A DNA stretch of 64,000 bases from Crenarchaeota archaeon 13_1_40CM_3_52_17. GTDB taxonomy: Archaea; Thermoproteota; Bathyarchaeia; 40CM-2-53-6. Every line of letters begins with the position of its first letter. Position 1 is the first letter of the stretch. The position numbers and the translations under genes were made by a program. The DNA lies in contig MNGN01000045.1 of NCBI GenBank assembly GCA_001918745.1, forward strand, positions 42,829 to 106,828, read 5' to 3'. Below the pieces are notes generated by a model that did no database searches, had not been told where the DNA came from, and was given only the letters and a program-made list of their open reading frames with translations. Below are positions 10,880 to 60,501 of this stretch, one piece after another.

Positions 10880-11695
10880 CCGGAAGTTGTTCTCGTGGCT
10901 TTACGATGGTGGATCTACGGATCCATCCTTCCCCTGTTGCTCTCTTCAATTGTCCTCGTGGGCAACACGGCAAGAACTGTGAGGGTGGACCTCCCACCCG
11001 CGCTAGACGGCGTAGGAACTCGTACTACCTGTCAGGCTAGAGCCTGCGCGGCACAGCAACTCACTACCAGCTTTGGGAATGATATAGTTGTTCTATTCGT
11101 CCGCACAGGCAGTAACACGACTACGCTTGCACTAAGTGATAGTAGTGGTATAGTCTTTACTGAGCGGCTTTCGTACGCTTCCAGCGAATTCCATGGAGGA
11201 ATGATCCGGGAATACTATGCAGTATCGATCTCGCCTCTGAATTCTGATAATATTACGGTTGTTCCAGATCAGTGCTGCTACACAATTCGCGGAATGCAAG
11301 TTCTCGGTATCTCAGGTGCTGACACCTCGACGATCTACGATCAGAACAAATCTGTTCCCGCAACAGTGTCCTGCCCAAGTGAAGTATGCGGTTATTGTCA
11401 TGCTGACGCTAACACGAACCCGGGAACATGTTCTGCCTCAATACACTCCTCCGGCGCAGACTTTGTAATAGTGGCAACACAGATCAATGACACTCCAGGG
11501 TGCGGAGGCTACTCAAGCTCGCCAGCAGGATACCGTCCCCCATCAGGGTTCACGAGGATAACAGCTCCAAACGGTAACTTCGAAGTCGACTACACGATAA
11601 CTAAGGCGTCAAGACAGGTTGAGTTTGACTGCAGTGGCACGGACGCGACGGCAATAGTAGTCGACGCAATCACCTCATCAGTCCTAACTGACTAA
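10823..11695 (+). CDS. Cys-rich secreted/membrane-anchored hypothetical protein
   Basis: There is a TM/signal segment (WWIYGSILPLLLSSIVLVG) followed by a Cys-rich extracytoplasmic region. The start is uncertain because it overlaps the GNAT 5' end. Confidence 0.5.
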   Translation: MCSLVHGPLKYSDRPISHHPEVVLVALRWWIYGSILPLLLSSIVLVGNTARTVRVDLPPALDGVGTRTTCQARACAAQQLTTSFGNDIVVLFVRTGSNTTTLALSDSSGIVFTERLSYASSEFHGGMIREYYAVSISPLNSDNITVVPDQCCYTIRGMQVLGISGADTSTIYDQNKSVPATVSCPSEVCGYCHADANTNPGTCSASIHSSGADFVIVATQINDTPGCGGYSSSPAGYRPPSGFTRITAPNGNFEVDYTITKASRQVEFDCSGTDATAIVVDAITSSVLTD

Positions 11696-13445: not shown

Positions 13446-14926
13446 ACTGAAGGCTTGATGTTCTGGTTCATGTGGAAGAGGTTTTTCGGATCCCACTTGT
13501 TTTTGACTTCTACGAGACGTTTCCATACTGCTGGCTTGTAGGCGGCCTGGATTCGGTCGGTCTCCTCCGCCGTCATGAAGTTGACGTAGACCCCACCTGT
13601 GGAATACGGTGCGGATGCTTTGAAGAATGCCCTGGCCCAGGAAGTGCACTTTTGGTCCTCGTTCGGTGTCTCCCATCGGCCATGGACGTTCATCACGAAC
13701 TTGGCGTCCCGCTGAGAATAGGCTGTCTCGTCCGATGCAACCCGCGAAGCCTTACCCCCTACGAGCCCGATGAAAATCTCGCAATGGGGTGATGGAAGCT
13801 TGCCCGCGTACTCGATCATCGAGTCGAGGGCCGAGTCATTCAAGGTCGAAAAATTGTGCGACTTCCAATAGTTTCGGAAGCCGGGGGTGAGAAGGGGGTC
13901 AAAGGCGCGCTGCCACATCACATAGGGCTGAGATCCCACATGTTCACCAAGGACCTTTGCGAAGCTCCGAATGGGAGCGATCAGTTTCTCGCCCTTCGCA
14001 GCATCTCCAGCATAAAAGATGGCGAACACGACGATTTCTTTCCCGTGGACTTCAGCTGGCAGAAATGGCAAGGGTGGTGCCTTTCTCAAGACTACCCAAA
14101 TGCTCAGGTCGTCCGGCATGTGTTCGACGAACTCTCGATATTTCCTCAAGACCGTCTTGGCTTCGTCGAAGGGGAAAACAATCAATCCGCTGAACACAGT
14201 AGGACCAACGGGATGCAATTGGAACTCGAAGGAAGTGACGATGCCAAAGTTCCCGCCGCCACCGCGGATGCCCCAGAACAGGTCCGGATTCTCACTGGCA
14301 CTTGCTCGGACCAGCTTTCCGTCGGCTGTCACCACGTCCGCTGATACGAGGTTGTCCACTGACATTCCATATTTTCGACTGAGCCACCCAAAACCGCCGC
14401 CAAGAGTGAGCCCGGCCACGCCCGTAGTCGAGTTTATTCCCAAGGGCGTGGCTAGCCCAAAGACCTGGGCGTCGTGATCGAAGTCCGCTAGAGTCGCACC
14501 TGGCTCAACAAATGCACGCCGCTCTTTCAGATCTACCCGCACCGATTTCATCGGCGAGAGGTCGATCACTAGTCCTCCGTCGCACACCGCGTTGCCGGCG
14601 ATGTTATGGCCGCCACCGCGTATGGAGACTAGTAAGTCGTTCTCTCTAGCAAAATCCACGGCATGTATTACATCGGCAGCTCCGGCACATCGCGCAATGA
14701 GCGCCGGCCGTTTGTCTATCATGGCGTTCCAGATTGTTCGCCCCTTGTCATAACCAGGAGAGTCGGATGTGAGAAGCTCTCCTCGGATGTTTCCCTTCAG
14801 TTCCTTGACCGCTGTTTCGCTAATATCGAATCTCCCCCTAGAAGTGACAACCTGCAAGTTTCGAATCCTCAACGAGGGCAGATTCTCGCGCGATAAAACG
14901 GTTTGTGACAGTTCGCAGATAGCCAA
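13442..14926 (-). CDS. FAD-binding (FAD-linked oxidase/BBE-type) oxidoreductase
   Basis: 494 aa with FAD_binding_4-like SIRGGGHNIAGNAV and a BBE-like C-terminus (WDPKNLFHMNQNIKP). Confidence 0.9.
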   Translation of the reverse strand: MAICELSQTVLSRENLPSLRIRNLQVVTSRGRFDISETAVKELKGNIRGELLTSDSPGYDKGRTIWNAMIDKRPALIARCAGAADVIHAVDFARENDLLVSIRGGGHNIAGNAVCDGGLVIDLSPMKSVRVDLKERRAFVEPGATLADFDHDAQVFGLATPLGINSTTGVAGLTLGGGFGWLSRKYGMSVDNLVSADVVTADGKLVRASASENPDLFWGIRGGGGNFGIVTSFEFQLHPVGPTVFSGLIVFPFDEAKTVLRKYREFVEHMPDDLSIWVVLRKAPPLPFLPAEVHGKEIVVFAIFYAGDAAKGEKLIAPIRSFAKVLGEHVGSQPYVMWQRAFDPLLTPGFRNYWKSHNFSTLNDSALDSMIEYAGKLPSPHCEIFIGLVGGKASRVASDETAYSQRDAKFVMNVHGRWETPNEDQKCTSWARAFFKASAPYSTGGVYVNFMTAEETDRIQAAYKPAVWKRLVEVKNKWDPKNLFHMNQNIKPSV

Positions 14927-15169
14927 GAGAGGATTCTGGCATACGTTGATAGCTAGAGGCAGGACCTACGCAATCCGGGTGCACTGAAGTTCCATGCGCC
15001 TGAGTCTAGAGGCGGAGAGCTGTTAATGCGAACCGGGAGGAAGAGCCCGTTTCTTGTAAGCTCGAATGGTATTCTAGTGCCAGTTCTGGGGTTACTGAAC
15101 CGGAACCTCGGTTCCTGCATTGTAAGATGAAAGAAAAAATTGGGAGATTTATTTTCTAAGAATCGTGGT

Positions 15170-16291
15170 CTAGAGTTGGATCTTGCCGTTATTGACCAGT
15201 GTGTAGCCGTCCACTGCTAGTGTTGGTTTTCTGAGGGTCTCTTCATGCCCGAATTGTGTCTCATTGGTTCCGCCGATGCCCTTGTTGCCTCCGATACCGA
15301 TGCTGACGGTGCCCTGGACGACGCGGTCGTTGAAGAACCCGATCAGTTCTGCTCTCGGATTGAGACCTATCGCAATGTTACTGACGCGGTCCTTGTCGCC
15401 TGATGCGTTATCGTAGAGCCACTTGAAAGAGTCAAGATTGGCCTGTGCCGTGTACTTTGTCAGTTGTCCGTTCTGGAATTCCAGTTGTAGACCTGACAGG
15501 ACCTTTCCGGCGAGTGCTGTTGGCTGGTCGAAGAGCACTTTTCCCTGAGCGCTTGTCTCATCGGGTGCCAGTTCGATTGCTCCGGCGGGAAGTGCTTCGA
15601 AGAGTGTTCCCTTGTCAAGATCGGTCTTGTCTATGATACCATCGTGGATGTGTACTGGCCGGTTCTTGAGTTTGAGCTGGAGGTCGGTGCCGTTTGCCGC
15701 CGTAATTCTGACGTTGGTGGCGTTTCGTAGTTTTGACTCGATCTTCGCGGCTTGGGCCGAGATTTTGTCATGATCGACGTCGAGGCTGTTGGTTGTGACG
15801 CGTTGCCAGTTTTCATAGTCGAATCCGTATGTCCTTGCTCGTTCGGGCGTTACTAGTCCGACTGGTAGGTTGAGGACGCGGATTTTTCGTTCGAGGAACT
15901 TGTCGCCTATGGCTTTTTGTCCTTCGAACATCTTGCCTGTTCTTTCGCCTGGCACTGTCGGGAAGTTTGATGGATCTTTGGGTCCGCCGAGCTGGATCAT
16001 TGCGTCTGTCTGGTCGAGAAGGGAGAGGAAGCCTTTCTGTCGACGGGTGAATTGTTCCTCTGGGACCTCTTTGAGGTATGCCCAGTAGAAATCGTTGCCC
16101 ATGAGGGTCGAGGTAGAGATACCGCCCGCGTGTTCGACTTCCAGTGCTAGCGCGGTGGCATATTCGAGGGTGTGATCCCACGAGGCGATGATTACTTGCT
16201 CGTTTGGTTGGACTTGTAGGCATTCGTTGACGAGACGGTTGGCGATCTGTTTGGTTGATTGGGGTTTGGAGAGTTGTTGTGTCATTGTCAC
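15170..16291 (-). CDS. M29-family (aminopeptidase T/AmpS-like) aminopeptidase
   Basis: 373 aa. Its overall pattern fits thermophilic metalloprotease M29 (IANRLVNECLQVQPNEQVII..., C-terminal IGIGGN...ETQFGHEET). Recognised by eye. Confidence 0.65.
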   Translation of the reverse strand: MTMTQQLSKPQSTKQIANRLVNECLQVQPNEQVIIASWDHTLEYATALALEVEHAGGISTSTLMGNDFYWAYLKEVPEEQFTRRQKGFLSLLDQTDAMIQLGGPKDPSNFPTVPGERTGKMFEGQKAIGDKFLERKIRVLNLPVGLVTPERARTYGFDYENWQRVTTNSLDVDHDKISAQAAKIESKLRNATNVRITAANGTDLQLKLKNRPVHIHDGIIDKTDLDKGTLFEALPAGAIELAPDETSAQGKVLFDQPTALAGKVLSGLQLEFQNGQLTKYTAQANLDSFKWLYDNASGDKDRVSNIAIGLNPRAELIGFFNDRVVQGTVSIGIGGNKGIGGTNETQFGHEETLRKPTLAVDGYTLVNNGKIQL

Positions 16292-47009: not shown

Positions 47010-49634
47010 TTGGCTCAGCCTCTGCCCTACATGGCCCTGAAAGACGCGCCAGTCCAGATCCGGCGAGCCGCCACCGTCGCCCAGATCTCCAGCAGCATCA
47101 CCCGCGCCCTCGGAATAATATTCACCACCCTAATCATAGCCACCCTCCCCACATGGGCCCCAGGCCTCCTCACCTACCAGACAATACCAGTCGGACTACT
47201 CGTCCTCGCGATCGGCTCGGTCATCGTCTCACGCAAAGGCAGCCGGATAAGAGAAGAGATCGCAGAACGAAAATTCGAAAAAGCCCGCAGCAGCACATTC
47301 ACCACCGCAATCCTAGGATTCGTAATAGGCGGCATCATCCCCGGCCTACTCTACATCTACCTCTACACCCGAATCGGCGACGTAATGGTCAAACGGACAC
47401 CAGACGACCCCAAAACAGTCTACCTCCTCCCACACCCAAGCGAGGGAATATTCCTCGGCCGATACCTCGGATGGATCGCAGCATACCTCCTCGTCCTCTA
47501 CATCGGCTACACCCAGCTATCACCAGGCCTCCGCGAAGTAAGCGACTGGCTCTCACCGGTCCTAGGCGTCCACTTCAACACGATGATCGTCGCCCTATTC
47601 CTCGTCTTCACCAACCCACTAACCTACCCCCCACTACTCTACCTCTGGACCTTCGCAGGATTCCTCGGCGGGCTAATCGCCGGCGGAAAAATCAGACGAG
47701 GCTTCTTAGTTGGCATGACAGTATACCTCTCCACCCTCGGAGCACTAGGCCTCGCAGCCCTCGCAATCTACCAGAACGTCAACCTCTCAACGCTCTCCAG
47801 CCTTCCCCCTCCACCACCAGGCTTCTCGATCATAAGCGCCACCACAGGACCCGTCACAGGCGACATCATCCCGATCCTCATCCAAGGCGCCTCTCCAACA
47901 AGCCAGATGGTCATCCAAGACGTCATACTGACCATGATCAGAAACGCGGGCCTAGTCTTCGCCGTAGCCACAATATCCGGTCGAGCAGCCTCCCTCTTCT
48001 GGCAAGGAGACGTTTTCATCCTCAAGACAATCTGGAAAACGATCAAGACAAAGAAAACAGCCCTGCCACAGAACACGGGCACTAGTACCTTTCCAAAGAA
48101 GGGCTTACTCCTACTCGCACTCGCAATTCTCCTTATGATCCCAACGTATCACTCGGTTAACCCACGACCGATAACCCAAGCTCCACCTAGCGGGCCCTAT
48201 CAGCAAAACCTCGCAATCGGACTAGACATGCTTGGCGCCCCGAACGCCAGCCTACGAATGACAAACCTCGACCTAACAAGCAAAGGCCTCGTCCTAGACA
48301 ACAATTACGCTGGAAACAATCTCTCGCTCTTCATAATCAACAACAACTATACGCGATTCCTCGGCACCAGCTCCAGTCTCGGCATACCAAGCTTCATCCT
48401 CGGCCTCTTCTCACAGCCCGCCCTGATCACGTTCTACACAGGAGACCCAGCCACGACTCGAGGAGAATCCGACAACGTCGCCGCACAATTCTCCCAAGCC
48501 CTTGGTGTCAGCTTCACGAAAGCATTCGCCGTTCCATCAGGCCAAGGCACTGTCACAATCTATGCGCCAAATCCTGAGCTCACAAACAACGACGCTCTCA
48601 CACGAGTTCTCGGCCTCCTTCCCAGCTCAAGCTTCTCCACCCTCATCAAACCGGCCAACCTCCAATCTCTCCAATATTTCGCGGCAATCGGCCTCGCAAG
48701 CATAAGCCTCCCAGCACCACTCAACAAAACGCCCACCCAAGCCTTCAGCTTCATCCTCAACACCCAATTCCCACGCCAATTCTACAAAGCAGGACAACAC
48801 TACCTCAGCCTGAAAACACTTCTTGGATTCCAGACTGGAATCGTGGGGGACACCAATTCAAACGCGTCCATCGTCTCCATCAGCTTCCAACGTGGAACGG
48901 TTCTCTACAGCCCGCTCGGGCTGACACCTCCCTACAACCCCATTTACAACAACTTCACTTCGACATACATCTACAATGCCACGATCACACCAAGATCAGA
49001 CTTCATGGCGAACTTCACCTATCCATTCGCCCCAAACATAACCATACAGAAAACCGTGAACCCGTTCAACGGACCTCTAGGCACCAGTCATAACATCCTT
49101 GTTACGATCCAGAACTTCGACAACGTCACAGTCACAAACCTCAACGTCACCGATGACCAGGCGCCACCCTCATACCAGAAAACGCTCGACATCTCACCGA
49201 ACGGAGTACAAACCGGCCAGTTCGCCAGTTTCCCTCCCGGACAGACACAATTCCTCAGCTATACTGCCACAACAAAAAGCAGCGGAATCTATGTTCTATC
49301 ACCTGCGAGTACGGAGTTCGTCTGGCAAGCATCGAATGGAACAAAGATCCGATACACGGTTACGACCGATAGCCCACTGATCTCGTCATCAAGCGGACCA
49401 TGGACACAGTTTACTAGAACGTTTACCGACCTCCAACCGTATTCCTATCTCCTCCTTCTCCCTCTTCTACTCACACCGATAATTGAACCTCTGAAACTTG
49501 TCCGAAGACATCGAAAGAAAAAACCGGAACCGTGGGTCAACACACCCGCAGAACCTCAAAACACACTGCCGCCGGCGCCTACGCAAGCCGGACCTGACAA
49601 AGGAGTCAATCCTCCCAACCCAACGGGTACTTGA
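47010..49634 (+). CDS. large polytopic membrane protein with sequon-rich extracytoplasmic domain and C-terminal anchor (hypothetical)
   Basis: 874 aa. It has about 8 N-terminal TM segments, then a ~450-aa region with more than 12 N-x-S/T sequons (for example NFDNVTVTNLNVTDD). A late TM (YSYLLLLPLLLTPII) is followed by a basic tail. The start is TTG at 47010 or ATG at 47031. Codons are extremely A/C-ending. Confidence 0.7.
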   Translation: MAQPLPYMALKDAPVQIRRAATVAQISSSITRALGIIFTTLIIATLPTWAPGLLTYQTIPVGLLVLAIGSVIVSRKGSRIREEIAERKFEKARSSTFTTAILGFVIGGIIPGLLYIYLYTRIGDVMVKRTPDDPKTVYLLPHPSEGIFLGRYLGWIAAYLLVLYIGYTQLSPGLREVSDWLSPVLGVHFNTMIVALFLVFTNPLTYPPLLYLWTFAGFLGGLIAGGKIRRGFLVGMTVYLSTLGALGLAALAIYQNVNLSTLSSLPPPPPGFSIISATTGPVTGDIIPILIQGASPTSQMVIQDVILTMIRNAGLVFAVATISGRAASLFWQGDVFILKTIWKTIKTKKTALPQNTGTSTFPKKGLLLLALAILLMIPTYHSVNPRPITQAPPSGPYQQNLAIGLDMLGAPNASLRMTNLDLTSKGLVLDNNYAGNNLSLFIINNNYTRFLGTSSSLGIPSFILGLFSQPALITFYTGDPATTRGESDNVAAQFSQALGVSFTKAFAVPSGQGTVTIYAPNPELTNNDALTRVLGLLPSSSFSTLIKPANLQSLQYFAAIGLASISLPAPLNKTPTQAFSFILNTQFPRQFYKAGQHYLSLKTLLGFQTGIVGDTNSNASIVSISFQRGTVLYSPLGLTPPYNPIYNNFTSTYIYNATITPRSDFMANFTYPFAPNITIQKTVNPFNGPLGTSHNILVTIQNFDNVTVTNLNVTDDQAPPSYQKTLDISPNGVQTGQFASFPPGQTQFLSYTATTKSSGIYVLSPASTEFVWQASNGTKIRYTVTTDSPLISSSSGPWTQFTRTFTDLQPYSYLLLLPLLLTPIIEPLKLVRRHRKKKPEPWVNTPAEPQNTLPPAPTQAGPDKGVNPPNPTGT

Positions 49635-49738
49635 GAGTCTTCACAATCGCGGATCCTCACTCGCATCCGAGCCTCTTCCCTGGCGTGTTTCCTATTTTAG
49701 CCCTGAAATCGCTTCACTACCAGTGAAGTTCCTCGTAG

Positions 49739-49760
49739 ACCCCTTCATTTCCACTGGAAC
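49739..49760 (-). promoter_or_regulatory. ORB-like box with G-string (minus strand GTTCCAGTGGAAATGAAGGGGT)
   Basis: Read directly. The core 11-mer at 49749-49759 is the exact reverse complement of 55353-55363. Confidence 0.45.
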
Positions 49761-49883
49761 TTATGGAAACGGTCGGATTACCCGCGAATACCCGTTCACG
49801 ACTAACGCCAATAGTGATGCGTGAGCCTTTTCTACATGTGAAAGGTGAACTGTGAAGTCCCTAGTTTTTCTCGAGGAACAAAG

Positions 49884-50306
49884 ATGAGACCACGACGATT
49901 GAAAGTGGAATTCTATGACCCGGAAGGCGTCAGACACTCCATCGCAATCGACGGTCCTGTGACAAGGGAGAAGGTGGCTAAGATATTGGACCTCGTTGAG
50001 TTGATGTCCGGAACGCCGCAGGCGTCGGCTACGGCTCTCGGGCTCTCCCCCCGAAAATTCGACAGACTGGCCAGCACAATCATATCCAATCTGAAGGGAA
50101 GAAGCTTCACATCACGTGACGCGAGAAAGATATTCGAAACCACCTTCAAGGAAAAGATACCCTTGAGCACGGTGTCCACATACCTAACGAGACTCACAGA
50201 CCGAGGGGTTCTTGAGAGACACCAAGAAAAGCTCGGCTTAGCTTACCAGGTCAGGCTTGATGAGCAGAAACAGTCTCTCGTTCCTGCTCCTTCCCTTCAG
50301 CCTTAG
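49884..50306 (+). CDS. hypothetical protein with C-terminal winged-helix domain
   Basis: MRPRRLKVEFYDPEGV...; the C-terminus is IPLSTVSTYLTRLTDRGVLERHQEKLGLAYQV. I prefer the ATG at 49884 over the listed GTG at 49845. Confidence 0.55.
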   Translation: MRPRRLKVEFYDPEGVRHSIAIDGPVTREKVAKILDLVELMSGTPQASATALGLSPRKFDRLASTIISNLKGRSFTSRDARKIFETTFKEKIPLSTVSTYLTRLTDRGVLERHQEKLGLAYQVRLDEQKQSLVPAPSLQP

Positions 50307-53514: not shown

Positions 53515-54099
53515 CTAGTCGGAAGGTTCCGAGGAGAACAGACCTCTAGCAAGGACGCTTGCAAGCCGCAAGGGTTCTGGCATTCGCGAGACGAATGCTG
53601 ATGCTTTCAGGATGGAACGAGCTTCGCGAGTTGAGCATCCGAACCGTTCAAAGAACACTGGACCCTCGTTGGGCATCGTCCGAACCTTGTGCAAGGAACC
53701 GAGTGATCTGATCAGTTCCCATCTCTTTCCCCAATCGGGAAAATGTTTGAACAGGGCACGCTTCACAGCCCTGTTATTAGGTCGGGAACCCACAACCACA
53801 ACTACTGGCGCTTTGCACAACTTCTGTATTTTCCAAGGGTCGATAAGATTGAACCCTCCAAAAGTCACGCCTAACAACAATACCGGAGTATGCAGAGACC
53901 CTCTTAGTAGAGACCCGGCCGTTCTAGTTGCGTCGAGTCCATCTACAGTAATCCAGTCAGTTCTTAGTTGTTGTAGATGAGCCCCTTTCAGCCACACAAC
54001 TAGGAGCGGGGCATGTCTGACCTTGTCATTGGTTTTCGGCGGAAACGGGCCGTCATCGATGCCAATACATCTAGAGACTAGTTTGATGTCTGAGGACAC
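53515..54099 (-). CDS. DUF99/UPF0215-family protein
   Basis: IGIDDGPF...ITVDGLDATRT...LLLGVTFGGFNLIDP...APVVVVVG matches my recollection of the DUF99 pattern. Its start overlaps the cdc6 3' end by 29 nt. Confidence 0.75.
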   Translation of the reverse strand: MSSDIKLVSRCIGIDDGPFPPKTNDKVRHAPLLVVWLKGAHLQQLRTDWITVDGLDATRTAGSLLRGSLHTPVLLLGVTFGGFNLIDPWKIQKLCKAPVVVVVGSRPNNRAVKRALFKHFPDWGKRWELIRSLGSLHKVRTMPNEGPVFFERFGCSTREARSILKASAFVSRMPEPLRLASVLARGLFSSEPSD

Positions 54100-55318
54100 T
54101 CCGTGGAACGTAGCTGAGAAGTCCTCGAACCATCTCGTCCGCGCTGAATGAAGTGTTCACCGCACGAGCTTCGACGCCCAGCCGTATCTTCTTTGTACGA
54201 CCGTACCTGCCGAAGCTGACTACTCGCGCGTTCAGCACCCCCATGATATCCAGCTCATTGAGCAGCCCGCTGACTCTTCGCTGGGTGAGAGGTTCGACTG
54301 AACCGGCGCCGCACAACTCTCGATACACCTCGTACACGTCCCCCGTTACCGAGCTCTCTTTCCTCGCGTTCTCCAGTTGCATTACTGAGATTAGAAGGAT
54401 TCGCGAGTGGAGTGGGAGGGATGACAAGGCTTCCGTCACACGGTCATGTTCGACTTTCTGTTGGGCTTCGCGGACGTGATTCTCTACTACGCGAGGCTCG
54501 CGTGATCGTTCGGCGATCTCAGCGGCCACTCTGAGGAGGTCGAGTGCACGTCGTGCGTCACCGTGTTCTCCTGCGGCCAAGGCTGCGCATAGGTGCAGAG
54601 CTCCTTGGTCCAGAATTCCGGTGCGAAGGGCAAGTTCTGCTCGTTCCTTTAGAATGTCGTATAGCTCATCTGAGGAGTATGGTTTGAACACGACCTCTTC
54701 CTCTCCTAGCGAGCTTAGGACTCTGGGGTCCAGGAAGTCTTTGAAGTGGAGGTCGTTTGATATTCCTATGAGCCCGATCCAGCCGTCGGCCAGTTTCTCG
54801 TTTATCCTGGTTAGTTCGTATAGCAGACTGTCGTCTTCGCTTCTCTTTACCAGCGCGTCTATCTCGTCTAGGACGACGAGGAAGGCGGAGCCACGTGATT
54901 GGAGCGCGTTTCTGAACCGGTCTAGGAGCTCACCTACAGCGAGTCCGGTGAATGGGACTTCTCGACCGAGAGATCTGCAGAGATCGGCGATAACCCTGTA
55001 GTTTGTTCCCGAGAGACGGCAGTTAATGTAGCTCGTATCGAGAGCTCGTCCGTGTTCGCGAGCCTTGCGCTGTAACCGATCTAGAACGAATCTTGTCACG
55101 ATTGTCTTCCCTGTTCCAGTCTTGCCGTAGGCGAAGAGGTTCGACACTCGATCCTTTGTAAGGGCTGGAGCGAGCACGGATCCGAGCCGGCGGATCTGCT
55201 CTTCCCGGTGTGGAAGGGTTGCGGGCATATAGTCATGTCTGAGGAGGTTTCTGTCGCGAAAGACCTCCCCTCCTGACAAGACTCTTTCGAAGATGAGATC
55301 TAATCCTTGCTGTGACAA
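54071..55318 (-). CDS. cdc6: Orc1/Cdc6 replication initiator
   Basis: 415 aa. FRDRNLLRHDYMPATLPHREEQI, Walker A YGKTGTGKT, Walker B LVVLDEID, sensor regions and a C-terminal winged helix. Confidence 0.95.
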   Translation of the reverse strand: MSQQGLDLIFERVLSGGEVFRDRNLLRHDYMPATLPHREEQIRRLGSVLAPALTKDRVSNLFAYGKTGTGKTIVTRFVLDRLQRKAREHGRALDTSYINCRLSGTNYRVIADLCRSLGREVPFTGLAVGELLDRFRNALQSRGSAFLVVLDEIDALVKRSEDDSLLYELTRINEKLADGWIGLIGISNDLHFKDFLDPRVLSSLGEEEVVFKPYSSDELYDILKERAELALRTGILDQGALHLCAALAAGEHGDARRALDLLRVAAEIAERSREPRVVENHVREAQQKVEHDRVTEALSSLPLHSRILLISVMQLENARKESSVTGDVYEVYRELCGAGSVEPLTQRRVSGLLNELDIMGVLNARVVSFGRYGRTKKIRLGVEARAVNTSFSADEMVRGLLSYVPRSVLRHQTSL

Positions 55319-55352
55319 AATCTGAAACAGTCCGGGTTTTCTGCGAGCCGGC

Positions 55353-55396
55353 TTCCAGTGGAATTAAGGGTTCTTGTAGAGAATTTCGTGTGGAAT
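55353..55396 (+). promoter_or_regulatory. ORB-like core TTCCAGTGGAATtaaGGGT (55353-55371) plus degenerate direct copy TTCGTGTGGAAT (55385-55396)
   Basis: Read directly in the cdc6 / 55533 divergent intergenic region. The two copies are 32 nt apart. Confidence 0.45.
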
Positions 55397-55532
55397 ACAC
55401 GATTCTACTAAACTACGCCATTGCAACACTGGTGTTTCTACGGTTACAGCCTGTCGCGACCCTTATCATCAACGGTCGGCACAATTTAGATACACGCACT
55501 GGCCAACAAGATCGGACACGCTGAACTCTGGC

Positions 55533-56657
55533 ATGACTTCTGTAGCTCTTTCAGAACTCCTGCGACAAGGAAGAGTCATTGATCCAAACCTCCGATTGAT
55601 GTCTGTCCAATGCCCAAAATGTCGGAGTCAAGATGTTCGGCTCAAGCCTCACATTATAGTCATAACTTCAGAAGAAGGGAGGGAAAAACAGATTGCCACC
55701 ATAGCGTGCAAAAGCTGTGGCAACTGGTGGGAAGACAGTCCCGAGAATCTCGCAGTATCTTTTGAACGGCTCCCCCCGTTGGTCTCCGAACTAAAAGGAG
55801 CACCTGAGATTCGAGACGCCGGAATATCCGTCCATATTCAGACCAATCTACACTTGCGTAGCCAGACAAACGCTGAACAAGTTATTCACTGTCTGCTTGA
55901 TGCTGGAGGACTGTTTATTCCTGAAACATTTGAAGGGGACAATGGGCGAAGAACTCTGTTCAACGCGAGCGACCTAACCGTCCCCTTGAATGGCTGGACT
56001 AACGGATGGATCGTTGGCAAGGATAGACTCCCCGGAATCATGACAAAACGACTGAAGCCTTTCAAGGTGCTCTTTAACGTCATGACGACCGATTTTGTAA
56101 TGTTCGATTATCTTAGCTTGTATTTTTGTCTGGACAAGAATGGAGTTTTGGATCCCAAACGCGCCAAGTTATTCGATCAATTCGTTGGTCCGGCTAAGCT
56201 CGTCACCGTTGCGAAGTCATTGTATGGTGCGGTCGGAGCGAATCGTGGAGACATAAGAAACGACTTCCACGAAGAACCTCTTGGCACGTGGAAAAAAGAC
56301 AATGCGAGAGGATGGAACCCCCCAAAAGTGAGACATGCACTCCAAGGGTTGTTTTGGGCGAATTTCTTCGGTCCCGAATACGTTGACATGTGGGGGCGAG
56401 AAAAAATGTTGTCAGCGCCTTGTTACAGGGCCGAAGAACTTCCGGACGGTGGGGTGATACTCCAGTTATCAGCATCACCTTTCGATGCTTCTAAGCCTGA
56501 ATACGCAGACACGAAACAGCGGCTCTACGACTACTTGGGTGAAGATGCCTTCACTGGCAAGACTCTACCGAAGTTCAGAATAGGAGAGGGACGAAAGAAG
56601 AGAGACGCAAGACCCCTCAGAGAAACCGGAGGGGTTAGGGACAACATTTTCAACTGA
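55533..56657 (+). CDS. zinc-ribbon-containing hypothetical protein
   Basis: 374 aa. An N-terminal CPKCRSQDV...(29 aa)...CKSCGNWW is followed by a large uncharacterised domain (GLFWANFFGPEYVDMWGREKMLSAP...). Confidence 0.6.
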   Translation: MTSVALSELLRQGRVIDPNLRLMSVQCPKCRSQDVRLKPHIIVITSEEGREKQIATIACKSCGNWWEDSPENLAVSFERLPPLVSELKGAPEIRDAGISVHIQTNLHLRSQTNAEQVIHCLLDAGGLFIPETFEGDNGRRTLFNASDLTVPLNGWTNGWIVGKDRLPGIMTKRLKPFKVLFNVMTTDFVMFDYLSLYFCLDKNGVLDPKRAKLFDQFVGPAKLVTVAKSLYGAVGANRGDIRNDFHEEPLGTWKKDNARGWNPPKVRHALQGLFWANFFGPEYVDMWGREKMLSAPCYRAEELPDGGVILQLSASPFDASKPEYADTKQRLYDYLGEDAFTGKTLPKFRIGEGRKKRDARPLRETGGVRDNIFN

Positions 56658-56781
56658 AACCAAATCCAAGATTCCAAGCGGCTCCTCTGGAAATAAAGAT
56701 GTCCGAAATTTACGACAAGACTAAGGGTTCTCGTACAATGATTTCAACTGGACAGACCAAAAACTCGATCGTGGACGCGGG

Positions 56782-58254: not shown

Positions 58255-58323
58255 GACCTTGAACCTCTCCGGCAGGAGCTAGGTTTCATTCTTAATTCCT
58301 TGCTTGAAACAAGACGGGGGATT

Positions 58324-58639
58324 ATGACGGTTGCGTCTCAAGAGTTGAGCTTTCGGACACATCACGAAGGAGATATTCTCGACGTCACAAGAGAGGATCC
58401 AGAGAATCGTCGAATCCTCAAAGATGAAGAATGGAGTTGCAACGATCTTCGTGGCCGGATCAACCGGAGCCCTAACAACAATCGAGTTTGAACCAGGACT
58501 TTTGGGCCGACTTGCCCCTAGCGCTAGAGAGACTCGCGCCTAAAGACGCACCTTACGAGCATGGCAACAGATCGTCTTTCTTGAGCTAGATGTTAGACCG
58601 CGGGACCGAACCGTCATTGTCCAGCTAGTTGGCGAGTAG
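58324..58639 (+). pseudogene. decayed yjbQ/UPF0047-family gene (at least 2 frameshifts plus a ~40-codon internal deletion)
   Basis: Family-like pieces lie in three frames. They read MTVASQELSFRTHHEGDILDVTRE, then IQRIVESSKMKNGVATIFVAGSTGALTTIEFEPGL, then FWADLPLALERLAPKDAPYEHGN, then WQQIVFLELDVRPRDRTVIVQLVGE*. The segment normally found between Y-x-H and (LG)TWQ is missing. Confidence 0.6.
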
Positions 58640-58654
58640 CAGACCTAGAACACG

Positions 58655-58860
58655 CACCCCTACCCCCCTCCTTCCTCTGCAGACTTTGAAGAATCTCCAG
58701 TCCTTTGCGTACAGAATTTAAGATGAATCTACTATGGAAAATGTACAGGTCAGCATAAATCATCGTGATGCAAGTTAACCTTGCCAGTAAGTTTTCTAAA
58801 AGTAACATACACACCCAATGTTAGTTGAGGATTTGCACTGGAAACCATGGGGTGGGGGTA
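58655..58860. other. candidate replication-origin module (inverted ORB-like boxes plus AT-rich spacer)
   Basis: 58655-58684 and 58831-58860 form an imperfect inverted repeat (19/30). The right arm reads TTGCACTGGAAACcatGGGGTGGGGGT. The spacer 58685-58830 is 36% G+C by hand count. Confidence 0.45.
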
Positions 58861-58923
58861 GACCTCCTCTTAAATTGACAATGTTCGAATCCGTGTTTAG
58901 AACGCTGAGGGTTGGTAGGTCTA

Positions 58924-60432
58924 TCACTGGAAGTCGACCATCTTGACGTCAAGGGTTTTCAGGTTAACAACGGGAAGGATTCCCGGCTTAGGGACCAGCC
59001 CCATCCGTTTCTGATAATCCGTCTGCCCTTGCCAGGCACCGCTATTCACTATCGTTGTTCCCCTGTAGACGCCTGCACCTGAAACGTGTATGTGTCCGGA
59101 TGTAAAAACGTCCGGGACTCTATCTATCACCAGGAAATCCTCCTGCTCGGGACCAATCGGCGTCATCTTCCCGTACTCCGGAGACAGGTGTCGGGCCCGT
59201 AGCTGGTACTCCATTACCTCTACTGGACGTTGATAGTCGAGCCCTGGGACTCCACTCAGAATATCCATCAGGCTAGTTCCATGGTAGAGTAGAAACTGGA
59301 CCCCGTGCAAACGGACCTCTGCTGGATCTCCTAGTGGAACAATCTTCCGCGAGTCGTAAACAGGTCCGGCAAAATCTCTCGAGATAGCGGGTTGCGGAAG
59401 GGCCTGGCGTACCGCATCATGATTCCCAGGTATCAAAACCACATCCATGTACTCTGGAATCTCGCTGACGAATTTCGCTGCTATTCGGTACTGTTCATAG
59501 ATGTCGGGAACCGCAAGGTCCACCTCTTGGCGAGGATAGATTCCGATCCCGTCGACAAGGTCGCCCCCGATCAGAACATACTTCACTCTCTCGGCGACTT
59601 CTCGCTGGTTCGGGGTTCCAATCTCTCCTTTCAGCCAGCTTAGAACCCGGCGGAACTCGTCCTCGAGAAACACCTTGCTCCCGATGTGAACGTCGGATAT
59701 CAATGCGGCATAGATCTCTTCGCTAGCGTGGGCCGGCTTTCTATCCGGTATCTCGGGCAGAACAATGCTTTCCGCGATCAGGAGAGGACCAGCAGTTTTC
59801 CGGGCTTGGATGTAAATGACTTGGTCTCTGACGATCTTCCTCGCCATCTCGTACACCGTAGAGTTCTGCCGCCCAACGAGGACAGTGGCTTCATCCTCAT
59901 AGTCGTCAACTGTCAGGAAGATCCTGTCACCTTTCTCTCTCTTTTCGAGGACCATACAGATGAAGCGGCCTCGACCATTTGATCCGCCTGAAAGCGCGTC
60001 GGAAATGGTCCCGGCGTTTCGGGTGTCCATTCTCTGCCTGAAGAGCAGGCTCATCTTGTCGAAACGGTTTCTGAAATAATGGAGAAAATCATCAAAGGCA
60101 CCAGTCGTTCCGAGCTTGCCCGTAGGGTCCGAGACAACTTCTAGCCGAGACTCAAGCTCCTCAGCAAAACGTCGGCCACGTCCCAAACCACCACCCTCAG
60201 TCCCCCTACTCTTCCCCAAGAGGTCTAGCTGTTCGGCAGCTCTGAGGACGAGGTCCCTGCTGATCGATGAGGGCCGCGGCTCTACGGCTCCGGCGACTCG
60301 AAGGACTTCCTTGACAAGAGGGTCAAGCGGGCTTGCTACGCTGACCTCCATGAGGGCCTTGAATGCGTCGCTTTCCATCTGGAACCCTGCTTCCAGTATG
60401 GTGCCGATTGCTCTCTTCCTCTCTTCAGACAT
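58924..60432 (-). CDS. polB: DNA polymerase II (PolD) small subunit DP1
   Basis: 502 aa with the calcineurin-like phosphoesterase motifs ALISDVHIGS, GGDLVDG and PGNHD. The N-terminal and OB regions are typical of DP1. Confidence 0.9.
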   Translation of the reverse strand: MSEERKRAIGTILEAGFQMESDAFKALMEVSVASPLDPLVKEVLRVAGAVEPRPSSISRDLVLRAAEQLDLLGKSRGTEGGGLGRGRRFAEELESRLEVVSDPTGKLGTTGAFDDFLHYFRNRFDKMSLLFRQRMDTRNAGTISDALSGGSNGRGRFICMVLEKREKGDRIFLTVDDYEDEATVLVGRQNSTVYEMARKIVRDQVIYIQARKTAGPLLIAESIVLPEIPDRKPAHASEEIYAALISDVHIGSKVFLEDEFRRVLSWLKGEIGTPNQREVAERVKYVLIGGDLVDGIGIYPRQEVDLAVPDIYEQYRIAAKFVSEIPEYMDVVLIPGNHDAVRQALPQPAISRDFAGPVYDSRKIVPLGDPAEVRLHGVQFLLYHGTSLMDILSGVPGLDYQRPVEVMEYQLRARHLSPEYGKMTPIGPEQEDFLVIDRVPDVFTSGHIHVSGAGVYRGTTIVNSGAWQGQTDYQKRMGLVPKPGILPVVNLKTLDVKMVDFQ

Positions 60433-60501
60433 TGAGCGGCCTCCTGGAACCGTACCTGATACGTAACCGCGGCTTATCCGGTTATCGCGAGACCGGGTCC
60501 G

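Follow-up and report, generated by a model that had tools for sequence, protein, structure and literature searches.

Where does chromosome replication start in Bathyarchaeia? These archaea are abundant and uncultured, and a literature search found no description of their replication origins. The question is raised by a short non-coding interval in a 64,000-nucleotide stretch of Crenarchaeota archaeon 13_1_40CM_3_52_17, a soil member of the Bathyarchaeia whose genome was assembled from a metagenome (GenBank contig MNGN01000045.1, positions 42,829 to 106,828; the whole 64-kb stretch is called the window below). Between the gene for DP1, the small subunit of DNA polymerase D (PolD), and a dead yjbQ gene, an initial annotation had recognised the classical layout of an archaeal oriC, that is, inverted boxes of the Orc1/Cdc6 type (origin recognition boxes, ORBs) around an AT-rich element. 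Our analysis agrees with it: motif, polarity, an unstable spacer, an initiator of the Orc1-1 type and 18 relatives all point the same way. Judging from sequence, positions 58656–58859 (the module) are probably the functional core of the chromosome's oriC1-type replication origin, a reading to which we give a probability of roughly 0.8. Three features go beyond the initial annotation: a third box that remains at the cdc6 promoter, a rearrangement by which the other two were parted from it, and conserved motifs within the spacer.

Inverted origin recognition boxes beside the DP1 gene

The two arms of the module, as first described, are cacccctacccccctccttcctctgcagac at 58655–58684 and atttgcactggaaaccatggggtgggggta at 58831–58860. 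Their sequences and coordinates are exact, and a recount again gives 19 matches of 30 when the reverse complement of the left arm is laid without gaps on the right arm. Relatives for comparison came from a GTDB genome scan with DP1, which returned 29 loci. Nearly all of these are metagenome-assembled genomes (MAGs) of soil Bathyarchaeia with a DP1 identity of 70–93%; one, L022, is the closed Bathyarchaeota chromosome CP070791.1, with 45% identity. L001–L007 and L018–L020 are close relatives of the window, while L009, L010, L012, L013, L017 and L023 (DP1 identity 70–75%), together with L008 (78%), represent outgroup lineages. Relatives were sampled as loci of ∼21 kb, and the stretches scanned overall measure 20–64 kb each.

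Both arms carry one gap-free 29-nt motif, YT(C/G)CAnnGGAA(A/G)-N4-GGGGTnnGGGT, which was defined on 31 sites in the relatives. A position weight matrix (PWM) trained on these sites, with the window left out, gives 36.3 bits to the right arm, ORB-a (ATTTGCACTGGAAACCATGGGGTGGGGGT, 58831–58859, plus strand, beside DP1), and 35.3 bits to the left arm, ORB-b (GTCTGCAGAGGAAGGAGGGGGGTAGGGGT, 58656–58684, minus strand, beside yjbQ). The motif has the make-up of an ORB, a TCCA-N2/3-GGAA dyad with a GGGGT G-string at a fixed distance behind it. The third-ranked match in the 64 kb reaches 21.3 bits, and in 200 first-order Markov randomisations of the window, matched in dinucleotide frequencies, the best score averaged 8.0 bits (standard deviation 3.6, largest 23.6). 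The boxes are oriented with the core toward the spacer and the G-string outward. The clade consensus of ORB-b, TCTCCAGAGGAAGGAGAGGGGTAC, is identical to ORB3 of Sulfolobus islandicus oriC1, TCTCCAATGGAACCGAAGGGGTGT, at 16 of 24 positions, and the distance from the core to GGGGT is the same.

Conservation of the motif in related genomes, on which the initial annotation had made its reading depend, is strong. Orthologous ORB-a and ORB-b sites are found in 18 relatives, and each genome that bears the module, the window included, has one inverted pair only, with a start-to-start distance of 183–194 nt. No second inverted ORB pair, and no equally unstable region bearing ORBs, was detected, whether in the 64-kb window or the 21-kb loci. 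The intergenic region 3′ of DP1 is conserved blockwise in L001–L007 and L018–L020, the arms being the strongest blocks. Invariant columns of the 19-genome alignment cluster in the arms, and over 18 genomes (L022 excluded) the arms have mean pairwise identities of 0.77 and 0.82, compared with 0.45 in the spacer and 0.32 in the flanks.

The spacer and its internal motifs

The spacer between the boxes (58685–58830) is a putative duplex-unwinding element (DUE) of 146 nt. Its G+C content had been put at 36%, visibly below the surroundings; we obtain 36.3% versus 51.9% for the window, which makes it the lowest-GC stretch of its length; of the 146-nt windows along the 64 kb, just 0.05% are equally low. 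It also contains, at 58710–58809, the 100-nt duplex of lowest stability in the window (nearest-neighbour ΔG –120.8; mean –142.8, standard deviation 5.7). Spacers of the relatives are 152–165 nt long and have 25–44% G+C. That of the window is 17 nt shorter than in its closest relatives (146 versus ∼163 nt).

Conservation within the spacer peaks at a central motif, ATTTATGCTGACCTGTACA (58742–58760, minus strand; consensus ATTTAKG-N3-WCCTGTAYA, also given as ATTTAKG-N3-WCCTRTAYA), whose pairwise identity of 0.85 equals that of the arms. The window holds a single copy of it. Exact matches were obtained in 14 loci, again one per locus and always within the module, so that in the sampled DNA it is confined to the origin module. 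By analogy with the position of the ucm motif in Sulfolobus oriC1 (PMC12141716), this might be the site of an accessory origin factor. A local conservation peak of 0.69 marks another block, AAACTTACTGGCAAGGTTAAC (58774–58794, minus strand), with the nearly invariant core TTACT(G/C), in which columns A81, C82 and T83 are invariant. By inspection this block may be a degenerate mini-ORB.

We also considered whether the central motif is ucm itself, and rejected this: its sequence differs from the 11-bp ucm (ATTATACAAAC/ATTATACAAAAG) and the resemblances are short and partial. Weak ucm-like strings are TTTTGTATAA in L020 and GTTATACAAAC, outside the ORB pair, in L022. The latter (13455–13467) matches the S. 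acidocaldarius ucm, ATTATACAAAC, at 10 of 11 positions and is placed ∼85 nt outside the pair; further out, L022 has a third ORB-like box, CCCCTGGATTTCTACTGGAAAAC (13575–13600). Both strings are short and might have arisen by chance.

Linkage to the initiator gene and its loss

Three genes matter for the history of the module, and for all three the initial annotation proved right. DP1 (58924–60432, minus strand; Pfam DNA_pol_E_B and Metallophos) has its stop codon 64 nt from ORB-a. The gene of the orc1/cdc6 initiator (54071–55318, minus strand; Pfam Cdc6_C, Cdc6_lid and AAA) is of the Orc1-1 type, and its start is 3,338 nt from the left arm, that is, the 3.3 kb first reported. The closest solved structures of its product are S. 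solfataricus Orc1-1 (2QBY_A, E = 6e–113) and Aeropyrum pernix ORC1 (2V1U_A, E = 1e–112), both of which we take to be initiators crystallised on ORB DNA. The third gene, yjbQ (UPF0047), is a pseudogene at 58327–58640 on the plus strand, alignable to the intact gene of L001 (PF01894, 2.6e–34) and terminating at TAG 58638–58640. It has suffered a 106-nt internal deletion (at 58561/58562) and two 1-nt indels relative to this orthologue; inactivation is seen in the window genome alone, the gene being intact in all relatives. In every genome with the module the 3′ end of yjbQ abuts ORB-b. Since yjbQ and DP1 are convergent on the interval, neither of them requires a promoter there.

In the outgroup lineages (L008, L009, L010, L012, L013, L017 and L023) the order is different: the yjbQ 3′ end, ORB-b, the spacer, ORB-a, ∼50 nt, GTTCCAGTGGAATTAAGGGTTC and the start of cdc6, so ORB-a is the cdc6-proximal arm. 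In the distant L022 the inverted pair (13160 and 13345, at about 1,160,170–1,160,380 of CP070791.1) encloses a spacer of 25% G+C and is placed in 600 nt of intergenic DNA immediately upstream of a cdc6 orthologue (58% identical). Because the pair is located upstream of cdc6 both in the outgroups and in L022, the module of the window is orthologous to a classical cdc6-adjacent oriC. In our view this synteny is the strongest argument for the origin.

What remained at cdc6 in the clade of the window can be recognised as well. A box which we call ORB1, a mini-ORB without G-string (CTTCCAGTGGAATTAAGGGTTC, 55352–55373, plus strand), differs by one mismatch from TTCCAGTGGAAA, is nearly invariant across all clades and lies ∼35–55 nt upstream of the cdc6 start, where it probably overlaps the promoter. 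In the seven outgroup loci listed above its distance from ORB-a is ∼50 nt. Beside it is a second, weak mini-ORB-like element found by inspection (TTTCGTGTGGAA, 55384–55395, plus strand), with homologues at this position in the L001 type (TTTCAACTGGAC) and in the outgroup lineages (TTTCGACTGGAC). In the window's clade the homology on the ORB1 side continues up to CTAAAC and then ends, while in the outgroups ORB-a follows within ∼10 nt; the breakpoint must therefore be placed just outside ORB-a. Read in this way, the sequences tell of a rearrangement in the window's clade that split the ORB pair from the third, cdc6-proximal box. Among nine genomes of this clade the arms are 0.86–0.90 identical, versus 0.59 at fourfold-degenerate sites of DP1 and 0.32–0.36 in the immediate flanks, a pattern indicating that the arms are still under purifying selection after the detachment from cdc6.

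Alternative explanations

GC skew and the Z-curve of the window speak neither for nor against the module: the cumulative skew minimum at 60479 is near it, at 1.6 kb, yet only 3.5 kb from the end of the window, in a curve dominated by the C-rich 874-codon gene described below. Several observations weigh against an active origin at this place. A G+C content of 36% makes the spacer merely moderately AT-rich. The classical adjacency to cdc6 is lost, with a distance of 3.3 kb in the window and 2.4 kb in relatives without the insertion described below. Finally, some ORB clusters are known to be bound by Cdc6 outside the origin, as in dp1 of Thermococcales (PMC1904270). In the one serious rival reading the boxes are genuine Orc1/Cdc6 sites, but the module of this clade has ceased to be an active origin or never was one; it would be a dormant, regulatory or titration site, initiation taking place elsewhere. 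Its detachment from cdc6, the ORB1 and mini-ORB still present at that gene and a further full ORB at 49733–49761 would all agree with this, as would the Thermococcales precedent and the negative regulation exerted by downstream ORB clusters in haloarchaea (PMC4010727). We nevertheless consider a non-firing site unlikely. Spacing, polarity, the AT-rich spacer and the central motif have all been kept under purifying selection after the detachment, the module is orthologous to the one adjacent to cdc6 in the outgroups, and neither the 64 kb nor the 21-kb loci offer another inverted ORB pair or a comparably unstable ORB region. Also, mutagenesis in Sulfolobus showed a requirement for ORB2, ORB3 and the spacer motif in firing, but not for ORB1.

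Explanations that do without an initiator fare worse. Being intergenic, conserved and 200 nt long, and having arms able to form 14 predicted pairs, the element between the two convergent genes could be the gene of a structured non-coding RNA whose terminal helix is made from the C-string and the G-string. Yet RNAalifold on 261 columns from 18 genomes gives –6.6 kcal/mol with arm–arm pairs alone and shows neither internal helices nor any true compensatory change; lineage-stable differences between the arms break the pairing (e.g. ACCCCCACCCC versus GGGGTACGGGT in L001), each arm resembles protein-binding ORBs, and Rfam has no match in 58400–59100 at E ≤ 10. This makes an RNA gene very improbable. 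We give as little credence to a miniature inverted-repeat mobile element (MITE), or a remnant of one, with termini that resemble ORBs by chance. It would account for inverted termini of ∼29 bp around a short AT-rich non-coding body and for AGACCT on both sides of it in the window (58642–58647 and 58860–58865), but this flanking AGACCT is conserved in no relative, the element is single-copy in each of the 20–64 kb sampled, its interior is conserved, which is not typical of the body of a MITE, and it is always joined to the yjbQ 3′ end, even in genomes with as little as 70% DP1 identity, and in the outgroups to cdc6 as well. That both flanking genes end in the interval might suggest a chance inverted repeat in a termination zone. 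PWM scores far above those of the randomisations and arms more conserved than synonymous sites effectively refute this; scans of 58300–59200 returned no terminator-like sites, and one sigma-70-like promoter match at chance level, irrelevant for an archaeon.

Chance does explain one detail of the initial annotation, an additional inverted repeat next to the DP1 stop, TAGACCT/AGGTCTA (58859–58865 and 58917–58923). The repeat is present, but 7% of shuffled 65-mers contain a perfect 7-nt inverted repeat, and the stretch from the DP1 stop to the right arm is unconserved in the relatives and absent in L020. Being at chance level and not conserved, this repeat has to be treated as noise.

Proposed mechanism

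Returning to the origin reading, each of the inverted 29-bp boxes would be occupied by a single monomer of the window's Cdc6 (Orc1-1 type, gene at 54071–55318); by homology with oriC1 of Sulfolobus and Aeropyrum, MCM loading by the initiators and melting of the DNA would take place in the 146-bp DUE. The ancestral order would have been yjbQ, ORB-b, DUE, ORB-a, ORB1 and cdc6, with the module directly upstream of the initiator gene. In the window's clade a break within ∼10 nt outside ORB-a would then have left the ORB–DUE–ORB core with yjbQ and brought it against the DP1 stop, while ORB1 and the mini-ORB would have remained at the cdc6 promoter, probably for autoregulation.

This history suggests a natural case of separation of function, in which both the core and the ORB1/mini-ORB pair were selected after the cut. 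The core might fire without ORB1 in cis, ORB1 might autoregulate cdc6, and the central motif might bind a Bathyarchaeial factor, as yet unknown, in a role like that of UBP at ucm. We offer this as a tentative proposal, somewhat more apt to fail than to hold as a whole.

Neighbouring elements

The window has a solitary full ORB at 49733–49761 on the minus strand (AGTTCCAGTGGAAATGAAGGGGTCTACGA, PWM 21.3 bits). Within GTTCCAGTGGAAATGAAGGGGTC, its 17-nt core, GTTCCAGTGGAAATGAA, is that found in the reverse complement of Pyrococcus furiosus ORB1 (PMC1904270). Neither an inverted partner nor an AT-rich neighbour was found for it. The box is kept at the same place in L001, L002, L003, L005, L006, L019 and L020, beside a conserved hairpin, CTTCACnnGTAGTGAAG, and is located ∼85–125 nt upstream of a small winged-helix gene (49845–50306), depending on the start codon chosen. 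A regulatory role as an Orc1 site is possible.

Immediately next to ORB1, the box near cdc6, the window alone contains a 1.35-kb insertion (55374–56721). Copies of a 9-bp direct repeat, TAAGGGTTC, mark its borders (55365–55373 and 56722–56730), and its ends carry imperfect inverted repeats of ∼16 bp, CTTGTAGAGAATTTCG and CTTGTCGTAAATTTCG (55373–55388, plus strand, and 56704–56719, minus strand; 2 matches versus 0.08 expected). Its cargo is one open reading frame (ORF) at 55533–56657, of 374 aa and with an N-terminal zinc ribbon. This ORF has no Pfam or PADLOC match, and there is no recognisable recombinase in the insertion. L019 has the same two junctions (13893–15714) around another cargo, a 416-aa FG-GAP repeat protein, and in L001–L006 and L020 the site is empty. 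The whole looks like a site-specific cassette or a non-autonomous element with the cdc6 promoter/ORB1 region as its target.

In the outgroup loci L009–L023, the place that the module occupies in the window's clade shows something else. About 30–120 nt 3′ of DP1 (L010 at 11503–11650; L017; L014) there is a palindrome with C/G runs, CCCCCGGGGGGGTCGAGAAATAG, followed by an A-rich stretch of ∼100 nt. The sequence is conserved among L010, L013, L017 and L023 and has no ORB match.

Nowhere in the window is GC skew stronger (–0.26 to –0.34) than in an ORF of 874 codons at 47010–49634 on the plus strand, whose coding strand is C-rich and which distorts skew-based origin calls. Its product looks like a membrane glycoprotein: numerous membrane helices are predicted, together with a large extracellular part rich in Asn, Ser and Thr (N-glycosylation type) and a C-terminal anchor; no Pfam domain was found in it. 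Antisense within cdc6, at 55120–55214 on the plus strand, ARAGORN places a 95-nt tRNA-Thr(TGT), which is without support from Rfam and probably a false positive. Rfam gives no match and no tRNA for the whole window at the gathering threshold, and the 64 kb appear to contain neither tRNA nor rRNA genes.

Significance and comparison with known archaeal origins

The well-defined 29-nt motif, as an inverted pair ∼190 nt apart, can serve as an anchor for orienting and closing MAGs, and an origin motif supports peak-to-trough estimates of growth rate from metagenome coverage. The ORB pair also provides defined substrates for biochemistry with recombinant Cdc6. What the module adds to the picture of archaeal origin architecture, a traceable detachment from cdc6 and a central motif specific to the lineage, is modest but open to testing.

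The closest counterpart is oriC1 of Sulfolobus/Saccharolobus. The Sulfolobus origin, recognised by Orc1-1, has three ORBs. Two of them, ORB2 and ORB3, flank an AT-rich DUE in inverted orientation and are each required for firing, and the DUE carries the essential short motif ucm (PMC12141716; for the layout, Robinson et al. 2004 as cited there). In the oligonucleotides P23 and P24 of S. islandicus oriC1 (Dhanaraju et al. 2025, supplement to PMC12141716) the succession is C-string, core, DUE, core and G-string. The window module has the same polarity as P23, and it shares with this origin a pair inverted around an AT-rich spacer of ∼130–165 bp, G-strings that face outward, a third box on the orc1 side and a conserved motif near the middle of the spacer; its initiator, too, is closest to S. 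solfataricus Orc1-1. It is unlike Sulfolobus in that, in the window's clade, 2.4–3.3 kb of unrelated genes part the core from ORB1 and cdc6. The spacer of the window is also less AT-rich, which fits a mesophilic soil genome of 52% G+C.

Ori1 of A. pernix similarly has an initiator of the Orc1-1 type (ORC1, 2V1U; E = 1e–112 with ours) and, as generally described and as outlined in the introduction of PMC1904270, a TCCA..GGAA core with GGGGT in inverted pairs around an AT-rich region. Four ORBs are present there, whereas the layout here comprises two full ORBs and mini-ORBs. The resemblance extends to Pyrococcus and the other Thermococcales, where ORBs consist of a TTCCAGTGGAA core and then a G-string, the TTCC..GGAA core matters for binding of Pyrococcus Cdc6, and oriC, cdc6 and dp1 are close together, an ORB cluster being physically linked to dp1 (PMC1904270). 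That cluster is inside the coding sequence and additional to an oriC adjacent to cdc6 (PMC1904270). In the window, in contrast, the ORB pair is outside DP1, 3′ of its stop, and would itself be the displaced core of oriC.

Origins away from the initiator gene also have a precedent in some Pyrobaculum origins, which resemble the window module in that the core is not immediately beside orc1/cdc6. Unlike in these, comparison with the outgroup lineages assigns the detachment in the window's clade to a specific breakpoint, located between ORB-a and ORB1. Set against all these systems, the module would be an ordinary, textbook kind of archaeal origin, to which the traceable detachment, the box left at cdc6 and the lineage-specific central motif are added.

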